From positions 71,544 to 135,543 of the forward strand of contig CAWEEG010000007.1 of NCBI GenBank assembly GCA_963808015.1: a DNA stretch of 64,000 bases, written 5' to 3'. This DNA is from an uncultured Actinomycetota bacterium. Its GTDB lineage: Bacteria > Actinomycetota > Acidimicrobiia > Spongiisociales > UBA5794. Position 1 is the stretch's first letter; each line of letters opens with the position of its first letter. The notes beneath the pieces are model-generated. The model saw only the letters and a program-made list of their open reading frames with translations, ran no database searches and was not told where the DNA came from. This document shows, in pieces, positions 6,319-60,853 of the stretch. The translations under genes and the position numbers were made by a program.

Positions 6319-8063
6319 ATGAGCCGAACGTCCTTTCGATTCGGGGACCTTCGCGTTGTTGCGCTGGGTCTGGTGTTCATACTCGCGTGGGCAGGCATCG
6401 GGTACCGCCTCTTCCAGGTGCAGGGTGCCGATGCCGCCGTTCTCGCTCAACGAGGTTTCGACCAACGGATCCGTCATGAGACCATCGAGGCGAAGCGGGG
6501 AACGATCTTCGATCGCGACGGGGTCGAGTTGGCGCTCACCGTCTACGGGAAGGCGCTCATCGCCGATCCCAGCCTCGTCGAGGACCCGAGCGAGGCCGCC
6601 GCGTTGCTCGCTCCAGTCCTCGGCGCCGACTACGTGGAGCTCGCCCAACGACTCGATTCCGACGAGCGATTCGCGTACGTGGCGCGCGGTCTCGAGAACG
6701 ACGTCGTCCAGCGAGCCGCGAAGGTGATCGAGGAGGCCGATCTCATGGGATTCTCCTTCGAGGAAGCCCCGCTTCGCATCTATCCGTCGGGTGGCCTCGC
6801 TGCACCGGTGATCGGGCTGACCCAGTTCGAAGACGGGGCAGGAATCGAAGGGATCGAGTCGGTGATGGACACGGAACTGTCAGGTCGACCCGGCAAACGC
6901 GTCGTCGAACGCGACCAGGCGGGGACGGGCAATCCCGCAGGCGGAGTTCCTCCTCGAGGCCGCTACTCCGGGGTCCGACGTCATCCTGACGCTCGATCGT
7001 GAGATTCAGTACGTCGCCGAACGTTCGCTGCAAGAAGCGATCGACAGCACCGGCGCGCTTGGGCGGGATCCGTCGTCGTCATGGACCCCGAGACCGGTGA
7101 GATCCTCGCCATGGTCTCACTTCCCGGCTTCAACGGCATGGATCGATCGACGCTCGACCCTTCGGCTATCCGCAATCGTGCGGTGTCGGATGTATACGAA
7201 CCCGGCTCTACCCTGAAGGTCGTGGCCGTTGCCGCCGCCCTCGAAGAAGGCGTCGTTCGGCCCGTCAACACCGTTCGAGACTCCGCACGGAGATCGAGGT
7301 GGTAGGTGAGACGTATACCGACCACGGCAGCCACCCGTCCGTCATGACCGTGACGGACATCGTTGCTCAATCCTCGAACGTGGGAACAATCAAGATTCAG
7401 GATCAACTCGGTGACGACACGCACTATCGGTACCTCGACGCATTCGGTCTCGGGCGTCCGGCGTCGATCGACTTCCGCGGCGAGGCGACCGGCAGACTCG
7501 ACCACGTGAGTGAGTGGTGCGGACCCGCCTGTGGGGCTTCCGCAGCGATCGGATACGGCATCGGCGCCACGACGCTGCAGATGGCTGCGGTGTACGCCAC
7601 GCTCGCCAACGACGGCGAGTGGGTCGAGCCTCATGTGGTCAGCGAGATCGTGGCTCCCGACGGCGACACGATCACAACAGAGGCAAGGCGGCGCCAGGTG
7701 ATCTCGGCTGAGACGGCCCAGACGATGCGCTCGATGCTGCGCGGCGTCGTCGAAGTGGGCACGGGATTTCGCGCCGACATCGAGGAGTTCCCCGTCGGAG
7801 GCAAGACCGGGACATCGGACAAGTTCGATGTCGAGACCGGCGAGTACAGCGAAACGGAGACCATCGCCTGGTTCATCGGCATCGCGCCCATCGACGATCC
7901 GTCGATTGTGGCGGCGGTTGTGCTCGACACGCCGACCGGAACGCTCCCGGATGACACTGAACTGAAGTTCGGCGGCGCATCAGCTGCGCCGGTCTTCGCC
8001 GAGATCGTCGAAGCCGCCCTCCACCAACTCGGGGTGTCTCCCGCCCACGACGACGATGCGTGA
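6319..8063 (+). CDS. ftsI: penicillin-binding protein 3 / FtsI transpeptidase, frame-disrupted as assembled (at least 4 breaks)
   Basis: Frame 1 6319-~6925 (TM plus PBP dimerisation domain). Frame 2 ~6929-7060 (AIPQAEFLLEAATPGSDVILTLDREIQYVAERSL). Frame 1 7066-~7270 (GSVVVMDPETGEILAM, EPGSTLK = SxxK). Frame 3 to 8063 (SSN = SxN; GGKTGTS = KTG). Confidence 0.85.
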
Positions 8064-9521
8064 CTCGCTCCGACTCTCCGAGATCGCGGCTCGCCTGCGC
8101 GGTGGTGCCGGATCGCAGGCGCCGATCCTCTGATCACCGGTGTGACACACGACTCGCGAGCGGTCGGGCCGCGGCGACCTCTTCGTCGCCATCCCCGGGG
8201 CGGTGGTCGACGGTCATGACTATGTCGACCGCGCGCTTGCGGCCGGCGCCGCTGCCGTGGCGGTCGAACGCGACATGGAGTGTCCGAGTCGGATCGTCGT
8301 GCCGAACGCGCGTGCGGCACTTCCGTGGCTCGCGGCAGCGGTGTACGGAGATCCATCGCGGCACCTCCCGGTGGTCGGGGTCACCGGGACCAACGGCAAG
8401 ACCACCGTGACATACCTTGCTCGAACAATCGTCATCGCCTCGGGCCGGACGCCCGGTGTGGTCGGCACCATCGGAGCGAGAATCGGCCAGACCGAGGAGC
8501 CGGTGGCCAGGACGACACCGGAGGCATCCGACCTCCAGCGCCTCCTTGCCGAGATGATCGACGCAGGCGTCGATGTCGCCGCCATCGAAGTCTCGAGCCA
8601 CGCTCTCAGCCTCCATCGGGTGGATGCCGTCCGATTCCGGGTTGTGGCGTTCACGAACCTGATGCAGGACCATCTTGACTTCCACGGCGACATGGATCGC
8701 TACTTCGCAGCAAAGGCATCGCTGTTCACGCAGATCGAGCCGACCACGCCGTGATCGGTGTGGATGACGAAGCCGGCAGGGAGATCGCTGCGTCAACGGC
8801 TGTAGCCGCAACCACCGTGTCCTTGGACGGCGATGCTGATATCACCGCGTCCTCGCATCGAGGAGTCGTTCGACGGATCGTCGTTCTCGATGAACACCCC
8901 GGCTGGGGGCTTCCCCGCCCATCTCCCGATTCCCGGCAGGTTCAATGTCCACAACGCCCTCGTCGCCGGGGCGATCGCCCTCGAGCTCGGGATCGATGCT
9001 GAAACGGTGGTTCGCGGCCTTGCGTCGGCAACGAAGATCCCCGGTCGATTCGAGCGCATCGCGGACGGTGACGGTCCCGCCGTAGTCGTCGACTACGCCC
9101 ACACGCCCGACGCGATCGAAGCTGTCGTTGGAGGCGCTCGGCATCTCTCCACCGGCCGCATCATCGTCATCCTCGGCGCCGGAGGTGATCGCGATCGAGA
9201 GAAGAGGCCGGCGATGGGCAGAGCAGCCGGCTCCGCAGATCTCGTGATCCTCACGTCAGACAATCCTCGCTCGGAGGATCCGAACGTGATCCTGGCGTCC
9301 GTTCGGTCGGGGATGGAAGCGTCCACGGTTGTCGTCGAAGAACTCGATCGCCGCCGTGCAATCCGCCGCGGCCTCGAGGTTCGCCGGTCCGGACGACCTC
9401 GTGCTGGTTCTCGGAAAAGGCCACGAGACCGGCCAGGAGATCGCCGGTCGGATCGAGCCGTTCGACGACCGCGCCGTCGCTCTCGAAGAACTGCGGCGCT
9501 CGCTCGGAGGAGTCCGCATGA
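8056..9521 (+). CDS. murE: UDP-N-acetylmuramoyl-tripeptide synthetase MurE, frame-disrupted as assembled (at least 5 breaks); 3' end inferred
   Basis: ATG 8056 [16 protein letters not shown] (frame 1). [14 protein letters not shown] (frame 3, ~8127-8170). [34 protein letters not shown] (frame 1 to 8754). Frame 3 8751-~8850. Frame 1 to ~9365 ([21 protein letters not shown]). Frame 2 ([16 protein letters not shown]). A stop appears only in frame 3 (TGA 9519-9521, ATGA overlap with murF). Confidence 0.8.
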
Positions 9522-36911: not shown

Positions 36912-37124
36912 ATGGCTCAATTGAATGTCGACGATTTCCTGGCTCGGTTCCGTGAACGGGCGACGGCCGTGAAGGAGCGGGGAATCCCGCCCCTGGAGGG
37001 TGAGGCGCGCCGCGTCTGGATCGAGAGCGCCGAGTACGACTTCATGGACTACTCGCTGGTTGGCCGAGCAGAGTGGGCGGTCGAAGACGACGCCCTCGTG
37101 CTCCGCATCCCGCTGGTTGAGTAG
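36912..37124 (+). CDS. hypothetical small protein
   Basis: 70 aa. ATG after GAGGAGG. GC3-rich codons. No family recognised. Confidence 0.45.
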   Translation: MAQLNVDDFLARFRERATAVKERGIPPLEGEARRVWIESAEYDFMDYSLVGRAEWAVEDDALVLRIPLVE

Positions 37125-37191
37125 CAAGAAGCAAGAAGCAAGAACAAAGACCCGAACCGTTTCGGGTCTTGGGTCTCGTGTCTCTTGTCTC
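37121..37191. repeat. heptamer-periodic imperfect palindrome (site A)
   Basis: (GTAGCAA)(GAAGCAA)(GAAGCAA)(GAACAAA), then the central hairpin, then (GGGTCTC)(GTGTCTC)(TTGTCTC). The arms pair as AGA:TCT triplets every 7 nt. Confidence 0.8.
37147..37170. terminator. bidirectional intrinsic-terminator-like hairpin between convergent genes
   Basis: AAGACCCGAA-CCGT-TTCGGGTCTT, a perfect 10-bp stem. On the minus strand it is followed by TTTGTTCTTGCTTCTTGC, downstream of the ThyX-like gene. Confidence 0.6.
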
Positions 37192-38858
37192 ACTCTTCCG
37201 CGATCCCGCGGGCGGCTCGGCGGGCGGCCAGCCTTCGCTCTTCTTCGAGGCGGGCGAGGGCGTAGGTGTTGTGGTCGACGAACTGCATGGCATCGGCGAT
37301 GGTCCGGTGGCCCGCCTCATCGCGAATCAGGCGGTGCATGTCCTGGGCGATCTTCCGGTATCCCGGATGGCCCGATGATTGGCTGCGGAGCTCGAGGAGG
37401 TGGAACGCCTCGCGAGCGTTCATGTCGATGTAGTAGCGGATCCGGTAGGCGAACGGCACCGCATACTGAGCGGCGACCGATCCGTGAGAGCTTTCGATCC
37501 GATCCGCCAGGATGGCCGTGCGCTCCATGACCTCGTCCCAGGCGGCGGTGGCGTCGATGTCGGCGATCGCATCCGGCGTGACGTACCCGTGCTGCGTCGA
37601 AAGGCGCTGCCACTCGATCGTGAGCATTCTGTGCCGCTGGAGGTCGCGAAACGCCCCGTAGTCGGAGAGGACATCAAACCGGTAGGACGTGCGCTCCATC
37701 GCCCGGCCCGGCTTGTGCCGTCGATTGCCCCGCGTCGCCGACGGCAGCCCGGATCAGCGCCGACCGATCTTCGGCGGGGAGGTCTCGTACATACGCGAGG
37801 AGTTGATCGTCCGGGAGATCGGATGCCGCGTAGAGCGCAGCCGCCGCCACCTTCGTTTCACCCTCTGGATCCCAGTCGACGAGCGTCACCTCGGGACGAT
37901 CCTCGATGTTTGGAGCGATGTCGGCGGCGCGCGCGTCGAGGTCGGCAGAGACGGACGCGAGGTAGTCGCTCCATGCGCCGCCACGATCGGGGAGGTCAAC
38001 CCGGGTGAGGAACGACGGGATCATTGCTCGCAGTTCGGTGAGCATCATGTCGGCGTAGTCGCGGATCTCGCGAAGCGGATGGGCCCGCATACGCATGAGC
38101 AGCATCTCGTACGCCTGCCCGCTGCCGAAGATCCCGAGGTTGGAGGTTGTTGCGGCCGGCAGCATGCCCCGCAGATCATCACATGCCTTGGCTCGGATCG
38201 TCGATCGCCACACGAAGGCCGAGTCGGAGTCCTGCTTTGGGAAGAGGGACTCGTAGAACGGCACGGCCCGCCCGATCAACGCCGAATAGGTGTCGAACAC
38301 AGCGTCCATCGTCTCTCGGAACTCCTGCTCGAGCGGTGTTCCGATCAGTTCTCGGGGCACGTGGTAGCGGTACCGATCTCCGAGGCGGCGGTCGTAGAAG
38401 ATGTAGCGCGTGGACTGCTCGAGATATGAGGCGAGCCTTCCCCACTCCAGCACCTTGGTGAGCACGTTCGAGGCCTGTTCACACGCGATGTGTGCGCCGC
38501 CCAGCTGGGCGACCGAGTCGTCGCCGTACTGCGTGAAGACACGTTCATACAGGCCTCGAGCGCGTGTGAGACCGACCGGCGAGTTCTCGTCATCCAGGGT
38601 TGCCGCGATCGCGTCGACGCCGAGATCGGGTTCGGCGACGAATTCGTCGAGGAACAGCCTTCGGACCGAGAGCGGCGAACGGCTGTAGCGCGCGAACAGC
38701 GCGCCCTTCACCACCTCCGGGAGGTTGATGATCCCGTAGACGGGGCCGTCGACGTTGGTGAAGAAGCGGCTCAGGAGGGCACGTTCGTCGTCCGTGAACG
38801 ACTCGACGTGGTATCCAGGGGGTGCGGGGCTGGGTGTGGTGGGCTGTTCGAATGACAT
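37190..38858 (-). CDS. tandem-domain ThyX-like (flavin-dependent thymidylate synthase family) protein, one frame break near 37725
   Basis: ATG 38858 MSFEQPTT... The N-half has ALFARYSRSPLSVRR. The C-half (ORF 37190..37699) has YGAFRDLQRHRMLT (ThyX RHR motif). The fragments join as ..AAVGD / GNRRHKPGRAMERTSY. Confidence 0.6.
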
Positions 38859-38867
38859 TGGTGGGAT

Positions 38868-39188
38868 TTGACCGTAGCAGTGCTCTTGGAACGGGAGCAA
38901 CCGTGGAACACGGGTAGCCTTCGGTGCGTGTTGATCGCTCTGCGGATTCTGCTCGGTGTGCTCGTCGCGATCGTCATCGCGGCGGCCGTCGCCCCGATGC
39001 TGGTGATCGCGGACCTCGCCGGTGGCGGAACGGGCTGGGGATTGTGCCCCGACGGAATCTCCACGTGCACCACGTCCTACTTCGCCGGACCCGAACTGCT
39101 CGCGATCCTTCTGTTCGTCCTGTTCGCGGCCCTTGGCGGCATTGCGATCTGCAACCGCCTCATTCGTCGGCTCAACGCCGGTCAGTGA
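38868..39188 (+). CDS. hypothetical small membrane protein (2 predicted TM)
   Basis: 106-aa ORF. GVLVAIVIAAAVAPMLVIADL and LLAILLFVLFAALGGIAI. GC3-rich. Internal GTG/TTG starts near 38928 are possible. Confidence 0.45.
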   Translation: MTVAVLLEREQPWNTGSLRCVLIALRILLGVLVAIVIAAAVAPMLVIADLAGGGTGWGLCPDGISTCTTSYFAGPELLAILLFVLFAALGGIAICNRLIRRLNAGQ

Positions 39189-40067
39189 ACTCCGGTCGCG
39201 GTCGTGGTGACGATGGAGTCGGCCTCTTCCGGCGGGGCGAACGCCAATACCACGTAGACCCCGGCCATGATCAGCGCCGCCCCCAGCCATCCGCGTACGG
39301 TGAGTCGCTCCCCGAGGACCACGGCCGCGGTCGCCGCAGCAAACACCGGTTCGGCGCTCAGAACGATCGCCGTGCGGCTCGGTCCGATCACACGTTGCGC
39401 CGAGACGTGGAGCATGAATGCTCCCGCACTCACGACGACCCCGGTCCCGATCAGTGCGGGGAGCACCGACGCGACCGGTAGCGGGAGACCCTCGAAAACG
39501 GCCGAAGCAACGAGGCCAAGGACGGCAACCACGAGCAATTGGATCGCCGTGAAGGGGACAACCTCGTGTCGGGGAGCGAATCGGGCGAGCGACACGATGT
39601 GGGCGGCGAAGGCAACGGCGCACAGCACCGTCAGGAGGTCGCCGCTATTGAGGCTGAAGCTCCGACGTGACGGTCAGGAAACCAAGGCCGACCACCGATA
39701 GGAGCGCCCCGAATATCGTCGTGATCGCCGGCGACGTCCGCCGGGCGAGCGCAGCGAGGAGCGGGGTGAACACGACGTACAGGCCGGTGATCAAGGCCGA
39801 GTTCGACGCACTCGTCTCCACCAGCCCGAGTGTTTGCGTGGCGAAGCCGGCGAAGAGCAGGCTCCCGGCGATGAGGCCATCAACCCAGATCGACCGGCCA
39901 TGTGGCCTGGCGAAGATGAACAACACACCAGCGCCGAGGAGGAAGCGCCATCCCACGAAGGCGAGAGGCGGGAGTGTCACCACCGCGTCCTTGATCACCA
40001 CGAAGGTGACACCGAACAGGAACGCCGCGACGAAGAGCCCGAGGTAGGCGCGTGTTCGCTGTGTCAT
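39182..40067 (-). CDS. EamA/DMT-family transporter, one frame break near 39650
   Basis: Two EamA halves (ORFs 39645..40067 and 39182..39628). The junction reads FLTVTSE / FSLNSGDLLTVLCAVAFAAHIV when shifted by one base. Confidence 0.8.
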
Positions 40068-40118
40068 GGGGAGAGGGCTCAGGATGCACCACCGTCGCGT
40101 CGGTAGGGGAGCGGGGCG

Positions 40119-40685
40119 TTAGAGGTTGGCGATCAGCGGCTTGCCGTCCTCGATGCCGGCGATCTCGACAACCGACCACACGTCCCACCCGTGGGACTCG
40201 AGAATGGTGCGACCCCCGGCGAACTGCTTCTCGATGACGAACGCAAACCCCAGCACCTCGCCGCCGGACTCTTCGACAATCTGGCCGAGCGCTTCCGCCG
40301 TACGGCCGCCCGAGAGGAAGTCATCGACGATCAGTGCGCGGCCGCCAGGCTCGAGCGCCCGCCGAGCAACCTCGACGCGGTACTCGACGCCCTTGGTGGG
40401 GGAGGTGACTTCGCGAGCGAAGGTGTATCGGTCTCCGACACCCAAGTACTTCTTCGCGTACACGACAGGGATCGGCAGATAGCGAGCCGTCGCCATCGCA
40501 GGGGGGATCCCCGAGGCTTCCGCCGTGACGATCAGGTCGGGAGCCTGGTCCGTGTAGCGCTCGGCGATCTGGCGGCCGATCTCGTCGATGATGATCGGGT
40601 CGACCCGGTGATTGAGGAAGTCGTCGACGAGGACCAGGTCGCCGGAGACCCGGCCGCGTTCCGCGACGATTGCTGGGATATTCAT
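40119..40685 (-). CDS. xpt: xanthine phosphoribosyltransferase
   Basis: Internal ATG 40685. LVDDFLNHRVDP, IVTAEASGIPPA, PRTase motif ALIVDDFLSGGRTA, FVIEKQFAGGR. Confidence 0.88.
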   Translation of the reverse strand: MNIPAIVAERGRVSGDLVLVDDFLNHRVDPIIIDEIGRQIAERYTDQAPDLIVTAEASGIPPAMATARYLPIPVVYAKKYLGVGDRYTFAREVTSPTKGVEYRVEVARRALEPGGRALIVDDFLSGGRTAEALGQIVEESGGEVLGFAFVIEKQFAGGRTILESHGWDVWSVVEIAGIEDGKPLIANL

Positions 40686-40702
40686 GGGGGGAGGGTAGAC
40701 AT

Positions 40703-40829
40703 GAGACCGAGACCGCGGGCGAGATCGAGAGAAGAAGTAGCAAGTAGCAAGTAGCAAGACAGGGCCGAGATCCGAGAGCAAAGAGCAAAGAGCAGAGAGC
40801 CGAGACGGGTCCGAGACCTCGAGACTCGG
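40703..40829 (+). repeat. purine-rich hexamer/heptamer arrays (outer arm of left repeat unit)
   Basis: (GAGACC)x2 at 40703. (GTAGCAA)x3 at 40737-40757. (GAGCAAA)(GAGCAAA)(GAGCAGA) at 40776-40796. CGAGAC at 40801, 40812 and 40820. Starts 18 nt upstream of the xpt start codon. Confidence 0.85.
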
Positions 40830-40916
40830 ATTGAACCCGTGTCTTCGCCTCCACCGCCGAAGGTGGGGGAGAGGTGCCCGAGCGATAGCGAGGGCGGGAG
40901 GGGGCGGTCTGGGAGC
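40821..40916 (+). repeat. ~95-nt GC-rich inverted-repeat core, left copy
   Basis: GAGACTCGGATTGAACCCGTGTCTTCGCCTCCACCGCCGAAGGTGGGGGAGAGGTGCCCGAGCGATAGCGAGGGCGGGAGGGGGCGGTCTGGGAGC. Matches the reverse complement of 42235-42328 with ~12 differences by hand alignment. Confidence 0.85.
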
Positions 40917-40927
40917 TAGCACCGCGA

Positions 40928-42129
40928 CTATGAGGTCGGCCGCGTATCTCGTGTCTCGGGTCTTCTCAGTATCTGGGCTGTTCGCTGATGACCATTCCTT
41001 TGGCTCGTGCGTGTTCGAGCCAGGGTGGGCCGTGGATTGGGGGTTGGAGGAGGCGCCGTGCGTTGGGGTGGCGAGTCGGGGTCGATGGTGAAGCCTTGGC
41101 CGTGGATCACGACCTGGTGGTGGAACCAACACACCGTCGTCAGGTTCTCCGGGTCGGTACGGCCACCGTCGATCCAGCGTTTGATGTGATGCACCTGCAG
41201 CCGATACCGGCTCGTGCAGCCCGCAATGGTGCATGCCGCACCGTCACGATCCATGACGAACCGACGCAGCTGCGGTGAGATGGCCCTGGCTGCGGCGTCC
41301 CATACCGCAGCGGTGTGCCGTCTGATGTTCGTGCGGTGACTTCGATGATGCCGTCACACAGGATCGCTTCGATCGCTGCTTCACCAACCCGCGGCCCACC
41401 CTGGACCACAACACCAGCCTCACCATTCGTGGCTGCCGCCTCGTTGGCGTCCACAAACACCGTCAACACGGGTGTCGGGTCTTCGATCGACGCACCATCA
41501 GTGCCGTAGAGGGCATCGAGGCTGATGGCCCACAGAGCATCCGCGTTGCGTGCAGCCCGCGACACGTGTCCGGGTCCTTTCGGGAAGGTGTCTGCTTTCG
41601 CTTCAAGGGCGTCAATGACGATCTTGCCTGCGAAGCCGGGGAGGCGGCCGTTGAGACGCCATAGTGATTCGTCGAGGTTGGGCTGCACGTTGAGGTACCG
41701 GTCGTTGTATGCCGTTTCTTCATCAACCCTGGTCATACGCCGCCGCCTGGCTGCCCGGTTGCGGATCCCCGCAATGTCGAACCCCGCCATCTCATTGAGA
41801 ATGTCGAACGTGTCGTCCCGGCGGGCGAACCTGCCGACCGCTACCGCCCGGTCGAACCCGATCTCACCGGTTTCGATTGCTTCTTCAACATCAGGAAGCT
41901 CTTCAAGGTGTTTGGCGGTCGCGACGAGGTCTCGTGCGGTCTCGGGGGATACGTCGAGGCGGCCCCGCACCCATTCACCCAACGACCCACACCCCGCCCC
42001 CATCGGCAACTGCCGCCGGTCAACCTCACGCAACAACACCAACTGTGTTGCCCGGACCCGAGCAATCACAGCCTCCCGATGAAGCAACTCCTGCTCAATC
42101 GACTCGTTGGTGGCGGTCTCGATATCCAT
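40928..42129 (-). CDS. DUF222 + HNH endonuclease (REP13E12-like), one frame break near 41255-41290
   Basis: ATG 42129 MDIETATNESIEQELLHREAVIARVRATQ.. (DUF222-type N-terminal region). HNH core in ORF 40928..41254: RDGAACTIAGCTSRYRLQVHHIKRWIDGGRTDPENLTTVCWFHHQVVIHGQGF. The low-complexity tail is read out of the 40944-40964 repeat. Confidence 0.8.
40944..40964 (+). repeat. (NNGTCTC)x3 heptamer array, inner arm of left unit
   Basis: (GTATCTC)(GTGTCTC)(GGGTCTT). Confidence 0.75.
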
Positions 42130-42171
42130 ACACCAACGTATCAACACGGGTAGTGACAGAAACCGGGCCTG

Positions 42172-42207
42172 GAGACAAGAAGACTTGAGACACGAGACAT
42201 GAGACAC
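42172..42207 (+). repeat. GAGAC heptamer array, inner arm of right unit
   Basis: GAGACAA GAAGACT T (GAGACAC)(GAGACAT)(GAGACAC). The last three units span 42187-42207. Confidence 0.75.
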
Positions 42208-42234
42208 GCGGCAGGCCTCCTCTTCGTGATTCAG

Positions 42235-42328
42235 GCTCCCAGGCCGCCCCCTCCCGCCCTCGCTGCGCTCGGGCACCCTCCCCCACCTTCGGCGGTGGAC
42301 GGCAGGACACGCGCTCAACCCAAGTCTC
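42235..42328 (-). repeat. ~95-nt GC-rich inverted-repeat core, right copy
   Basis: Its reverse complement is GAGACTTGGGTTGAGCGCGTGTCCTGCCGTCCACCGCCGAAGGTGGGGGAGGGTGCCCGAGCGCAGCGAGGGCGGGAGGGGGCGGCCTGGGAGC. Confidence 0.85.
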
Positions 42329-42356
42329 ATGTCTCAAGTCTCTTGTCATGCTACTT
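42322..42356 (-). repeat. outer arm of right unit
   Basis: Plus strand (AAGTCTC)(ATGTCTC)(AAGTCTC) at 42322-42342, then TTGTCATGCTACTTC. The reverse complement GAAGTAGCATGACAAGAGACTTGAGACATGAGACTT mirrors the left outer arm GAAGTAGCAAGTAGCAAG...GAGAC. Confidence 0.75.
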
Positions 42357-42403
42357 CCTCCTGGGTACGTTCCCCGGTCGGCGGGGCCGGGTACGATCGT
42401 TCC

Positions 42404-43016
42404 ATGGATAAATCCGGATCAACCGGAGCCGGCGTCTACCTGGGCACACCCACGGAGACAGACCGTGAGGCGTTTGTTGCGTTTCGGCGGGCAAGCGCGG
42501 GGTCCCTGGCCCCGTGGGAGCCGCGAATCGGGGACGCCGATGAGCAATACGGGGACCAGAGCTTCGATCGCCTGCTTGATCGTCGCGAATCAGAGGCGGA
42601 CGCGCCCTTCCTCATCCACCGCACATCCGATGCACGAGACCGTCGGCTACGTAGGCCTCGGACAGATCTTCCGTGGGCCGTTCCGGAGCTGCTACATCGG
42701 CTACTGGATCGGAGATCCCTACTCGGCCAGGGGTACGGCACGTAGGGAGTGCGAGCGTGCCTGCAGACGGCATTTGCACCTGAACTCGGAAGGCGGGCTT
42801 GGACTCCACCGAGTTGAAGCCAACATCATTCCGACCAACCACGCCAGCATCGCGCTCGTCCGCCGCGTCGGCATGCGCAAGGAGGGGTACAGCCCGCGGT
42901 ATCTCGAGATCAACGGCGAGTGGCAAGACCATGAACGGTGGGCGATCACGATCGAGGACTGGGAAGCGGCAGCACCACACCACGTCGACAACGCCATGCG
43001 AACCGTGAGCGTCTGA
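42404..43016 (+). pseudogene. GNAT N-acetyltransferase (RimJ/RimL-like), frame breaks plus an in-frame TAG
   Basis: ATG 42404 (frame 2) to ~42625. Frame 3 ETVGYVGLGQIFRGPFRSCYIGYWIGDPYSA. Frame 2 QGYGT-TAG(42743-42745)-GVRACLQTAFAPELG. Frame 3 GLHRVEANIIPTNHASIALVRRVGMRKEGYSPRYLEINGEWQDHERWAI to 43016. Confidence 0.7.
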
Positions 43017-43036: not shown

Positions 43037-43691
43037 ATGCCCGAGACCACCACCGAAGAACGCCGCAACGCCAGAGTGATCCTCAACCGCCTGAAGAAGC
43101 GGTATCCGGACATCTCGACGGCCCTCGAGTACGTGGATCCGTGGCACCTTCTCGTTGCGACCGTGCTCTCCGCGCAGACCACCGACGCAAACGTGAACCG
43201 TGTGACACCCGTCTTGTTCGAACGGTGGCCGACACCTGAGGATCTCGCGGCGGCCAATCCGGAAGAGGTCGAAGAGGTTGTGTATTCGACCGGGTACTAC
43301 CGGCAGAAGACGAAGTCGATCATCGCCCTGGCTGCAGACCTCGACGAGCGATACGACGGGGTGGTTCCGGCCGATCTCGAGGAACTCGTCACGTTGCGCG
43401 GCGTCGGACGCAAAGACCGCGAGCGTTGTGCTGGCGGAGGCATTCGGGATCCCGGCAATCGCCGTCGACACCCACGTGAAGCGAGTGTCGAATCGACTCG
43501 GCCTCAGTGCCTCATCGGACCCCGTCAAGATCGAGTTCGAACTCAGGGATCTCTACCCCGAGCGGGACTGGGAAGCGGTCTCTATGCGGTTCATCCAATT
43601 CGGGCGGGATGTGTGCGACGCCAAGAAACCCGCCTGTCTTGGCTGCCCACTCGCGGATCGCTGCCCGTATCCCGACAAAACCGTCGCATGA
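43037..43691 (+). CDS. nth: endonuclease III (Nth), one frame break near 43413
   Basis: ATG 43037. LVATVLSAQTTD, LVTLRGVGRK, then TASVVLAEAFGIPAIAVDTHV (an extra base in AAAGACCGCG). Fe-S cluster CDAKKPACLGCPLADRC. Confidence 0.88.
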
Positions 43692-56079: not shown

Positions 56080-56370
56080 ATGGCACGACGGGAAGAGCGG
56101 GTCTTTCGTATCAACGACGAAATCGCGGCACTGCGCCGTGACGAGCATCTAGCGTTCGAAGAGCAGATCATGCTCGGCCACCTCGATGACGACGCACAGC
56201 GCGACGCGGCCGTCAGTGGGAGCCCGCAGGATGCCCAGGATGCTCGGGAGACCGCAGGAGACGTAGCTCGAATGCAGCGGCACGTCGCAGATCTGCGAGC
56301 CGCCCGCGAGCATCTCGAACTCAAGAGAGACCGGCTGCTGGAGAAGCTCAACGCGTCGGCAGCGAAGTAG
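56080..56370 (+). CDS. hypothetical coiled-coil protein
   Basis: ATG 56080 after GGAGG (56064-56068). 96 aa, charged and helical. No family recognised. Confidence 0.45.
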   Translation: MARREERVFRINDEIAALRRDEHLAFEEQIMLGHLDDDAQRDAAVSGSPQDAQDARETAGDVARMQRHVADLRAAREHLELKRDRLLEKLNASAAK

Positions 56371-56415
56371 CCGAGTACGAAGTACAGGCTACAAGAGACC
56401 CGAGACCCGAGACGG
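56367..56415 (+). repeat. heptamer array (site E)
   Basis: (GTAGCCG)(AGTACGA)(AGTACAG)(GCTACAA)(GAGACCC)(GAGACCC)(GAGACGG). The first unit contains the TAG stop of the upstream ORF, as at site A. Confidence 0.75.
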
Positions 56416-59201: not shown

Positions 59202-60853
59202 ATGACCACGAACGAGAACGATCTCGCCACCACCGGCGAGGAGCATGCGGACGCTCCGGAGGACGCAGCGCCCATCGCAGACGCAACCGAGGCTGTCGTC
59301 GAGGAAGCAACGGAGGTCGTTGAGACCGCCGCCGCCGAAGAAGCGGTGGCCGAGGTCGAAGGGGAGGCCGTTGCAGACGCGGCCGTTGAAGCCCCCGAGG
59401 AACAGCGACCGATGAAGCGGTGGCCGAGGTCGAAGGGGAGGCCGTTGCAGACGCGGCCGTTGAAGTCACCGAGGCAGTTGCGCTCGAAGAAGCGGTGGCC
59501 GACGTCGTTGCCGACGCGCCGGCTGAAGCCGTCGATGCCGTCGCAGAAGATGCGACACCTCAGCCGGTCGTCACCCCAAGAGGAGAACGCCCCGCCATCA
59601 CAGCGCCGAAGGAGATCGCCGACCTGCCGGACGATCTATCTGCGGACGATTTCGCACGGGCGATCGAGCAGACCGTGTTCGAGTTCAAGGAAGGGGACAT
59701 CGTCGGTGGGACGGTGGTCCGGATCGACCAGGACGAAGTCCTCGTCGACATCGGATACAAGTCTGAGGGTGTGATTCCTGCGAAGGAGCTCTCGATCCGC
59801 AACACCGCGAACCCGGCGGAGATCGTCACGGTCGGTGAAGAGATCGAGGCGCTGGTCCTCCAGAAGGAGGACGACAACGGTCGTCTGGTCCTCTCGAAGA
59901 AGCGGGCGCAGTACGAACGTGCCTGGGGACGCATCGAGCGAATCATGAACGAGGGTGGCACCGTTGCCGGTCCGGTGATCGAGGTCGTCAAGGGCGGTCT
60001 CATCGTCGACATCGGTCTGCGCGGATTCCTCCCTGCGTCGCTTGTCGATTTGCGCCGCGTTCGCGACCTGCAGCCCTTCATCGGTGAGACCATCGAAGCG
60101 AAGGTCATCGAGCTCGATCGAAACCGCAACAACGTCGTGTTGTCGCGCCGCGCCTACCTCGAAGAGGAACAGGCTGAGCAGCGCCACGCGTTCCTCGCGG
60201 ATCTGAAGCCGGGTGACGTACGAGATGGTGTTGTGTCTTCGGTCGTGAACTTCGGGGCGTTCGTGGACCTCGGAGGAATGGATGGTCTCGTGCACGTCTC
60301 CGAGCTTTCGTGGCAGCACGTCAACCATCCCGGCGAAGTCGTCAACGTTGGCGACAACGTCACGGTCCGCGTTCTGGAGGTCGACTACGACCGGGAGCGC
60401 ATCTCCCTTTCGATCCGACAGACGACACAGGATCCATGGGAGCAGTTCATCGAAGCGAGCGACGCGGGCGACGTTCTCGACGGTGAAGTCACCAAGACAG
60501 TCCCCTTCGGTGCGTTCGTTTCCGTCGGTGAAGGAGTCGAAGGACTAGTTCACGTGTCGGAGATTGCGATGCATCACGTCGAGAGTCCAGAGTTGGAGCT
60601 TTCCATCGGGCAACAAGTTCGGGTAAAGGTCACCGAGGTCGATGCCGACAGACGACGAGTGAGCCTGTCCATAAAGCAGGCACTCCCCGAGTGGGAGGAG
60701 CGCTCAACGTGGAGCGACCGCCAGCCGAGCAAACCCCGTAGAAGGGAGTTCCAGCGTGAAGATGAAGCAGAAGCAGAGCCTTCATTCAACGCGGATGCCT
60801 CGCTCGAGGCCATCCTTCAGGAACTCAAAGAACGGGGCATCGGCCGCAGCTAG
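59202..60853 (+). CDS. rpsA: 30S ribosomal protein S1 with long acidic N-terminal extension; frame break caused by a 74-bp-period direct repeat
   Basis: ATG 59202 after CAGGAG. MTTNENDLATTGEEH...AVAEVEGEAVADAAVE (frame 3). The same peptide then recurs in frame 2 and continues into four S1 domains (GDIVGGTVVRIDQDEVLVDIGYKSEGVIP, ..GMDGLVHVSELSW.., ..GVEGLVHVSEIA..). Confidence 0.88.
59340..59391 (+). repeat. 52-bp direct repeat, copy 1
   Basis: GAAGCGGTGGCCGAGGTCGAAGGGGAGGCCGTTGCAGACGCGGCCGTTGAAG, identical to 59414-59465. Confidence 0.9.
59414..59465 (+). repeat. 52-bp direct repeat, copy 2
   Basis: Identical to 59340-59391. The 22-nt spacer CCCCCGAGGAACAGCGACCGAT gives a 74-bp period, which is not a multiple of 3. 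Confidence 0.9.

Follow-up and report, generated by a model that had tools for sequence, protein, structure and literature searches.

The stretch of DNA analyzed here, hereafter the window, comprises 64,000 nucleotides (nt) of an uncultured bacterium of the class Acidimicrobiia (contig CAWEEG010000007.1, positions 71,544 to 135,543) and carries a DUF222-HNH gene of the REP13E12 type placed between two inverted copies of a G-rich repeat core of ~100 nt. On its left side the locus is bounded by the host gene xpt (xanthine phosphoribosyltransferase, 40119-40685, minus strand; Pfam Pribosyltran, E 7.8e-13), whose product is 96% identical to a protein (P0123) from Acidimicrobiia metagenome-assembled genomes (MAGs); loci from other genomes or metagenome contigs are designated by L-numbers and proteins by P-numbers. 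Eighteen nt upstream of the xpt start codon lies a run of GAGAC heptamers (40700-40727; GTCTC in the sense of xpt), followed on the plus strand by outer heptamer arrays (40735-40805), in which Tandem Repeats Finder recognized 3.4 copies of AAGTAGC (40735-40758) and 3.7 copies of AGAGCAA (40775-40800), and by the 5' arm of the left unit (40795-40840), made of CGAGAC repeats that run into the core and traced by the direct-repeat family D2, pattern matches, and alignment with the right unit. The left core (40841-40945, plus strand; nhmmer E 2.5e-25), of type A and with predicted helices P0 to P3, is followed by a 3' arm of three NNGTCTC heptamers (40944-40966, plus strand) that abuts the native stop codon of the DUF222-HNH gene (40966-42129, minus strand). 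The conserved 5' region of this gene (42130-42215, minus strand; CCGGTTTCTGTCAC...GATACGTTG...ATG) merges with the inner arm of the right unit, with 3.7 copies of the GTCTC heptamer, and the right core (42206-42308, minus strand; nhmmer E 1.8e-21), also of type A, is inverted relative to the left one and in sense with the HNH gene. An outer arm of 3.4 GAGACNN heptamers (42321-42349, minus strand; Tandem Repeats Finder) closes the right unit. Beyond it stands a frameshifted gene for a RimJ/RimL-like GNAT acetyltransferase (42405-43016, plus strand; Pfam Acetyltransf_3), preceded in relatives by an AHSA1 gene and part of a syntenic block, AHSA1-GNAT-nth-MatE, in L161-L168.

The inverted cores and heptamer arms proposed by the first-pass annotation are both present. 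A repeat search recovered inverted arms of 77 nt (40887-40963 with 42188-42264, 82%) and 51 nt (40821-40871 with 42278-42328, 84%), and global alignment of the core segment 40821-40916 (96 nt) with the reverse complement of 42235-42328 (94 nt) gave 86 matches, 7 mismatches, and 4 gap columns, that is, 88.7% identity, or 80% when the alignment is lengthened to ~145 nt. Two core motifs of 21-22 nt occur exactly twice each in the window (expected 0.00), where neither motif searches nor nhmmer found any core besides the two flanking the HNH gene. The heptamer pattern GAGACNNGAGACNNGAGAC has 11 matches in the window with at most two mismatches (expected 0.45), and period-7 arrays were detected by Tandem Repeats Finder at 40735-40758, 40775-40805, 42187-42208, and 42324-42347. 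The arms can also pair within a unit, as had been suggested, those of the right unit being 90% complementary over 21 nt (42181-42201 with 42321-42341). On the other hand, the two cores are not a matched pair: they are ~84-89% identical to each other, and the best matches elsewhere reach 90.7% for the left core (L053) and 95.6% for the right one (L023 and L078), each being nearer to copies in other genomes than to its neighbor.

The coding content between the cores consists, as annotated, of DUF222 (PF02720, E 8.5e-11) and HNH (PF01844, E 9.9e-8) domains, but these do not form a single open reading frame (ORF): they lie in two different frames, and three 1-nt insertions, at 41306, 41287, and 41060, distinguish the gene from its intact homologues in L022, L023, and L025. 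The corrected protein ends in ...ISEQPRY, at a native TGA codon on the strand complementary to 40966-40968, so that the ORF tail described as translated out of the inner array is a wrong-frame read-through caused by the shifted frame. Other genes of the window are in a comparable state. Both thyX (37193-38858) and nth (43037-43688) are frameshifted relative to intact orthologues in L148, the GNAT gene and an EamA gene (39182-40067) also look split across frames, and an exact-match search with the window xpt protein returned no recorded protein, the window being frameshifted and its protein different from the recorded ones. The window assembly may be prone to indels, sequencing error and a pseudogene-rich genome being indistinguishable here.

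The HNH gene has more than 550 homologues, mostly in Acidimicrobiia MAGs and many of them on contigs of 1.2-2 kb, the intact ones encoding proteins of ~385 aa with both domains. Copies 85-92% identical adjoin unrelated genes (thiolase/IS110, guanylate cyclase, sigma-70, and F420-related genes), and the homology shared by HNH loci begins ~85 nt 5' of the ATG and gives out 10-25 nt short of the stop codon. The ~85 nt upstream of the ATG are conserved in all HNH loci and hold an invariant CCGGTTTCTGTCA...GATAYGTTG...ATG whatever the flanking sequence; they probably provide the gene with a promoter of its own and a leaderless start. The DUF222-HNH gene thus appears to be an independent mobile or selfish unit. 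Its protein is an ordinary member of the REP13E12-type DUF222-HNH family.

Cores were searched beyond the window with two anchors. A 19-mer of helix P1, scanned against a genome collection with one genome per species, gave 21 matches, of which 18 were chance matches in unrelated phyla and three, all in Actinomycetota MAGs, were real: a core beside an HNH homologue (L012), a single core with an acyl-CoA dehydrogenase gene on one side and another gene on the other, without any HNH (L021), and three tandem same-strand cores in a repeat-filled spacer of ~900 bp with no HNH homologue detected by tblastn in 8 kb (L015). This last spacer (L015:3170-4070) is filled with related small hairpins, for example CTCCCCACTTCGTGGGAGAGG. 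The second anchor, RGAGGGGGCSGYCTGGGAGC, which lies outside hairpins P1 and P2, matched at least 120 loci in metagenome contigs. Among the matches listed, nhmmer with a profile of seven copies found 199 cores in 111 loci (~1.07 Mb), and tblastn found an HNH homologue in six of these loci (L035, L037, L056, L069, L078, and L136). Neighboring cores in the same set are arranged in 53 same-oriented, 19 convergent, and 16 divergent pairs, mostly spaced by 52-180 nt, and core sub-units (P2 plus the 3' part, ~73 nt) are reiterated in tandem two to six times. With ~200 cores in 111 loci and HNH genes in about six of them, the repeats are not confined to the HNH element, the very outcome that the first-pass annotation had named as speaking against its own proposal.

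The cores fall into types A and B, to which a related element, type C, can be added; type C is itself dispersed, with at least 13 loci devoid of HNH. These modules form mosaics in which types A/B, type C, GATTCCTCCCC motifs, and heptamer arrays are mixed (L015, L023, L025, and L168), and in L015, L021, and L148 the cores are located between ORFs. A further short tandem repeat, GATTCCTCCCC(N)TGAG / CCTCCCC-loop-GGGGAGG, was seen near type C elements (L025:5165-5290, L168:640-700, and L024:3400-3440). Judged by the stops of the flanking genes, sense-only cores number 28 and antisense-only cores 29, and another 21 occupy the space between convergent genes, as measured from stop-codon positions only (the gene caller, based on third-codon-position GC, over-extends 5' ends); the core has no strand preference relative to genes. 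As expected for repeats that break assemblies, 85 of the ~200 cores are within 500 nt of a contig end. Four independent assemblies (L149-L152, first 100-130 nt) end inside the core that precedes xpt. These cores apparently represent an undescribed family of hairpin-forming intergenic repeats of uncultured marine Acidimicrobiia; in the literature searched, we found no paper naming both Acidimicrobiia and repetitive extragenic palindromes (REPs).

The heptamer arrays show their own regularities. There are 69 of them in the ~1.07 Mb of repeat-rich loci and their order across all loci is GAGAC-type, tip, and GTCTC-type, the reverse order never being seen; the tip measures ~100 nt in 11 cases, consistent with a core, and is a short loop in four. 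Because only five of the seven positions are fixed, the two arms can zip together whatever the heptamer register. The order gene stop, (AAGTAGC)n, (GAGACNN)n, tip, and (NNGTCTC)n makes up a more complete form, which occurs in the window at 37120 and 56370 as well as 3' of an MDMPI_N gene in L023. The arms are not confined to the core and HNH locus, since arrays stand alone elsewhere and at both of these window positions: a core-less array palindrome (37120-37195) fits exactly into the gap between thyX and a small ORF, whose stops converge, and an array of AAGTAGC-like units followed by (GAGACCC)x2.7 (56370-56413, plus strand) starts at a stop codon, both detected by repeat and pattern scans and both without HNH. 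At the site 3' of thyX, three relatives (L148:6846-6931, L149:2973-3068, and L150:2931-3026) have a different, longer array palindrome made of GTTCTTG/CAAGAAC repeated five to nine times, whereas the window array uses GTCTC/GAGAC and AGCAAGA instead; copy number at this site differs between assemblies with proteins more than 90% identical, and the array is absent from the more distant L153 and L155. Since both unit and copy number differ at the same site, the arrays look fast-evolving and microsatellite-like, and the array 3' of thyX seems best described as a hypervariable palindromic microsatellite. In L044, (GGGTCTC)x11 faces (GAGACNN)x5 (6356-6485) and (GAGACAC)x13 stands between a partial and a full core (9195-9293), which illustrates how far arms can expand. 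We infer from the position of the arrays at gene boundaries that the arm hairpins would normally serve as transcript-end or stabilizer structures.

The orthologous xpt locus allows the history of the gene and of the repeats to be followed separately. Relatives with xpt 84-86% identical (L153-L159) have a nth-xpt spacing of ~100 nt and no HNH, GNAT, or core, and L153 and L154 already possess AAGACAC and GCTACTT heptamers. In these two HNH-less relatives, the ~100-nt divergent nth/xpt promoter region (L153:3909-4001 and L154:273-371) consists almost entirely of heptamers, (AAGACAC)x2-3 and (GCTACTT)x3, so that each gene must have its promoter within arrays. The equivalent region of the window yielded no sigma-70 consensus, and a scan for consensus promoters and terminators found nothing. 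The locus with the closest xpt (96%), L148, comes from the same MAG as L015 and shows the order AHSA1, one core in the orientation opposite to that of the window left core, six GTCTC heptamers, the same 18-nt spacer, and the xpt ATG, without HNH. The first-pass annotation was correct in placing an array 18 nt from the xpt start, but not in attaching it to the HNH element: the homologous (GTCTC)n-TGTCTACCCTC-ATG is kept in the HNH-less L148-L152, and GCTACTT-type arrays, the reverse complement of the window outer array, are found 5' of xpt in L153, L154, and L160 (and also at the end of the L023 unit). The xpt-proximal arrays are therefore part of the xpt upstream region. An HNH gene occupies the xpt position, divergent from AHSA1-GNAT-nth-MatE, in the window, L160, L161-L165, and L168, and its flanks differ: L168 has an upstream type A core like the window right unit, L161-L165 have no upstream core, and L160 combines an upstream type C fragment with a downstream unit resembling the left unit of the window. 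The gene is absent from L148 and L153-L159. Far from an identical arrangement in all relatives, the gene is polymorphic and its flanks are variable, which indicates that flanking units come and go independently of HNH. L153, with no HNH between xpt and nth, carries ~4 kb from xpt, after thyX and a small ORF, a second and different DUF222-HNH gene (8369-8567; 424 aa).

These observations bear directly on the idea that the repeats are the HNH element's own termini, in which case the block from ~40733 to 42360 would be a single transposon with terminal inverted repeats of ~145 nt formed by cores plus arms, and the core doublets found elsewhere would be derivatives comparable to miniature inverted-repeat transposable elements (MITEs). 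The symmetrical outer ends of the block, GAAGTAGCA...TGCTACTTC with inverted cores, invite such a reading, as do the convergent and divergent doublets at other loci, the upstream core shared with L168, and the downstream unit shared with L160. But most HNH copies are devoid of one of the two "ends", and neighboring cores most often lie in tandem with the same orientation. Each window core has closer kin in other genomes than in its partner, the outer arrays go back to the ancestral region 5' of xpt, as seen in HNH-less relatives, and where the orthologous locus keeps its HNH gene the units on either side of it are variable. Moreover, the block borders (GAGAGAA | GAAGTAGCA ... TGCTACTTC | CTCCTGG), themselves uncertain, show no direct repeat and hence no target-site duplication. 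As for the comparison with MITEs, the heptamer arms are inverted, and neither a target-site duplication nor a parent element was identified. The inverted framing of the window is one of several configurations and is not kept across HNH loci, so that a transposon of this kind appears largely refuted here and we regard it as very improbable. What stands of the proposed homing or mobile unit is the gene itself, polymorphic at its locus and with close homologues in unrelated contexts, and not the repeats as its ends.

We consider it probable that the repeats constitute a mosaic family of the host lineage, uncultured Acidimicrobiia of marine sediments, similar to REPs and to the bacterial interspersed mosaic elements (BIMEs), and that the DUF222-HNH gene, selfish and distinct from this family, lands in or beside repeat clusters. 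Under this explanation, the modules (core, type C, and heptamer arms) would be scattered in intergenic clusters in both orientations, with rapidly changing copy number, and the ~1.23-kb DUF222-HNH gene, probably endowed with its own promoter, would move between loci and settle beside or between them. The repeats may act as hot spots for insertion or recombination, either because their hairpins are recognized or cut or because the dispersed copies offer homology for copying into a break. The window would then show a gene lodged between two independent units that chance to be inverted, a gene that also carries three frameshifts.

Such a landing is consistent with the neighborhood of the HNH genes. 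Among the 13 independent HNH loci with readable downstream sequence, a scripted table lists repeats within 500 nt 3' of HNH in nine, and inspection adds L160 and L022, that is, 11 of 13. Only GCTACTC-type arrays, seen by eye, are present downstream in L169, and no repeat was detected 3' of HNH in L175. The junctions cluster at the arm or at the 5' end of the core: in L069, L136, and L024, the HNH stop codon, TAG, is inside the P1 loop of a core, and in the window and L025 a GAGAC array directly follows the stop in the form TGA-(C/G)AAGACCCGAGAC, with near-variants in L022, L023, and L078. Upstream of the gene, a core-like element is absent from 8 of 14 loci, of type C in four (L012, L025, L160, and L169), and of type A in two (the window and L168). 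The distal parts of the loci ascertained through the protein contain no core except the one in L022, which is split by an insertion sequence (IS). This IS110-family element of ~1.29 kb (L022:5170-6516; DEDD_Tnp_IS110 and Transposase_20 domains) sits exactly in the P1 loop of a core directly 3' of the HNH gene, with junctions ...CCCCTCCACCACGCAG | IS | GAAGTGGGGGAGACG.... In one sample, an ISL3-family transposase gene (L175:50-1285) takes the place of the usual upstream flank, including type C, of an HNH gene of the P0053 clade. The association is strong and one-way: HNH genes are nearly always beside repeats and repeats are rarely beside HNH genes. The adjacency is not random, and the suggestion that the repeats are a recombination or insertion target survives in this form.

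Several points weigh against a mere landing of the gene beside host repeats. In six of the 14 HNH loci, the gene is preceded by a sense-oriented core-like element whose end lies ~90-100 nt before the ATG, a regularity that exceeds simple parking and fits either a precise target or a co-mobilized upstream repeat, and the upstream type C pieces are homologous within HNH subclades while the host genes differ. The repeat loci come all from metagenomes or MAGs and were sampled with patterns from this very element, so that their counts give no true genomic densities. In addition, the terminator or stabilizer role attributed to the arms is drawn solely from their position at stop codons, and no consensus terminator was detected.

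The same regularities would suit targeted homing, a hypothetical process in which the nuclease recognizes or cuts the arm junction or the P1 hairpin and the gene is copied into the break by means of the flanking repeats, used as homology arms; repeats on either side would then be a functional requirement, whatever their type and orientation. The few positions of the 3' junctions (TGA followed by a GAGAC array, or the core 5' end and P1 loop) and the spacing of the upstream element agree with it, and so do the variety of the flanks (direct, not inverted, type C copies in L025 and inverted type A copies in the window) and the rarity of cores in sequence not ascertained through them, given that the two cores of the 64-kb window are both beside HNH. 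The one-way association and the recurrent junction positions make a real targeting mechanism plausible. However, eight of the 14 loci have no recognizable upstream repeat, repeat-repeat recombination could have reshuffled the flanks later, and the ~1.07 Mb of repeat-rich loci contain no GTCTC array running directly into a GAGAC array, the form that an unoccupied target would take. For lack of any such junction in those loci, insertion of HNH by splitting an arm palindrome was also rejected. We therefore see targeted homing as a tentative and rather unlikely explanation. A bolder version is similarly doubtful: the ~100-nt core would be an unrecognized functional RNA or single-stranded DNA structure, and REP13E12-type DUF222-HNH genes would recognize it or its arms, home in, and be copied via the neighboring repeats.

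The structure of the core was studied on 94 distinct full-length copies (alignment A3). A closing helix, P0, surrounds hairpins P1 and P2 and is followed by a 3' hairpin, P3. When this four-helix structure was projected by hand onto A3 and the pairs counted, 85.3% of the cells could pair, against 48-60% with the partners slid by one to three columns, figures that rest on sequences collected by means of patterns from the conserved 3' block and on a structure taken from members of the family itself. P2 occurs in many sequence versions, all folding (GCCCGAGC/GCTCGGGC, GCGGCCGAGC/GCUCGGUCGC, GCAUCC/GGAUGC, CCGGAC/GUCCGG, and GCCAAGC/GCUUGGC among the 94 copies); six of its eight pairs have changed on both sides, and the observed covariation score was reached by no shuffle. 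The pairs include 344 G.U against 78 A.C, an excess that, by a rough estimate, is above that due to G-rich composition alone and suggests that the fold is favored on the G-rich strand. The commonest P2 variant holds a tandem G.A/A.G mismatch. To judge from these comparisons, the core keeps a conserved multi-hairpin fold with compensatory changes. RNAalifold on a MAFFT alignment produced a poor consensus of only 11 pairs with misaligned hairpins. Folding of the whole left unit (301 nt) was not more favorable than that of shuffled sequences, whichever strand was taken (z = -1.1 and -0.8); its stability is thus not evidence of function. Rfam 15 has no match at E <= 1 in window positions 40000-43000 and none at E <= 0.1 in L015, L021, L023, and L148. 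The proposal of a structured RNA is consequently upheld for the fold of the core, with its compensatory changes, but gains nothing from Rfam or whole-unit energy. Two candidate structures were discarded: a G-quadruplex, GGGCGGGAGGGGGCGGCCTGGG being present in type A and not conserved in type B, and a hammerhead suggested by a GAUGAG motif, the rest of the hammerhead core being absent and Rfam silent. A strand-specific role of the core in 3' untranslated regions was likewise rejected on the almost equal sense and antisense counts.

The fold raises the question of whether the two cores could be a pair of cis-regulatory RNAs, one in the HNH 5' leader and the other in antisense to both the 3' end of HNH and the xpt leader, which together would control the expression of HNH, xpt, or both. 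The compensatory changes, the G.U excess on one strand, and the tandem G.A pairs of the commonest P2 would be in keeping with such a function, as would an array and a core directly 5' of xpt in both the window and L148. Yet core orientation is random with respect to genes, the core 5' of xpt has opposite orientations in the window and in L148, the promoter-like region of HNH lies 3' of the core, whole-unit folding energy is not better than that of shuffles, and Rfam has no match. Regulation of this kind is, in our opinion, extremely unlikely. We retain the interpretation of the repeats as a host mosaic family and of the DUF222-HNH gene as a separate selfish unit.

REPs are 20-40 nt long, carry a GTAG head, and are accompanied in the genome by a cognate RAYT (Y1) transposase, and some IS elements are known to target them. 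The family described here resembles the REPs and BIMEs of Enterobacteria and Pseudomonas, including REPINs, in its hundreds of intergenic copies, its compensatory hairpins, its occurrence as singles, tandems, and inverted doublets, its mosaic clusters of several motif types, and its frequent location at gene 3' ends or between convergent genes. It would also share their role as IS insertion sites, the IS110 element in the hairpin loop of L022 recalling the REP-targeting IS elements. It differs in the size of the core (~100 nt and three or four helices, a REP having 20-40 nt), in its variable tandem heptamer arms, and in its Acidimicrobiia lineage. Neither a GTAG head nor a RAYT-type transposase was seen, no search having been aimed at them. 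Mycobacterial interspersed repetitive units (MIRUs) and minisatellites offer a parallel for the ~73-nt core sub-units reiterated intergenically, but here full units are also single, inverted, and linked to heptamer arms. Tandem intergenic heptamers are known as the TAACTGA repeats of marine Beggiatoaceae and the short tandemly repeated repetitive (STRR) and heptamer repeats of cyanobacteria (PMC4679880). Like the window arrays, they occur in two to more than ten copies near gene starts or stops, with strain-variable copy number (PMC4679880); those of Beggiatoaceae are, nevertheless, direct and just 5' of start codons, whereas the window arrays are inverted pairs, (GAGACNN)n...(NNGTCTC)n, often around a core.

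For the gene, the literature (PMC10589994, citing Gordon et al. 1999) treats REP13E12/HNH/DUF222 as a repetitive element. The M. tuberculosis REP13E12 resembles the gene studied here in its DUF222 and HNH protein and in being a mobile unit of ~1.2-1.4 kb found in unrelated contexts, with the difference that its name covers the gene-containing repeat itself. We know of no separate hairpin-repeat or heptamer-array family described with REP13E12. Free-standing HNH homing endonuclease genes are similar in their locus polymorphism, small self-contained unit, promoter-like 5' region, and decayed copies, but here, instead of a single conserved allelic target, there are many intergenic sites sharing repeats.

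If this interpretation is right, a large family outside Rfam, undescribed in the literature searched, combines a three-hairpin core with register-free heptamer "zipper" arms in an abundant, uncultured lineage of marine actinobacteria, and two unrelated selfish elements, DUF222-HNH and an IS110-family element, insert at its repeats. The repeats have practical consequences: they break metagenome assemblies, many contigs ending inside them, they can mislead gene callers, as seems to be the case here with the HNH ORF running into an array, and, in front of housekeeping genes such as xpt, they take up the promoter-proximal region. As a lead, the one-way link has the greatest value and gives a concrete and testable clue to how REP13E12-type genes choose their sites, to our knowledge a question since their first description in M. 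tuberculosis. Were targeting true, it would be the first mechanistic account of the spread of the widespread actinobacterial DUF222-HNH genes and a second example, beside the REP-targeting IS elements, of selfish genes using host repeats as a multi-copy safe landing site.

The window also contains, at 59335-59507, a tandem repeat of 74 nt (2.3 copies, 88% matches, score 276), the period of which is not a multiple of three.

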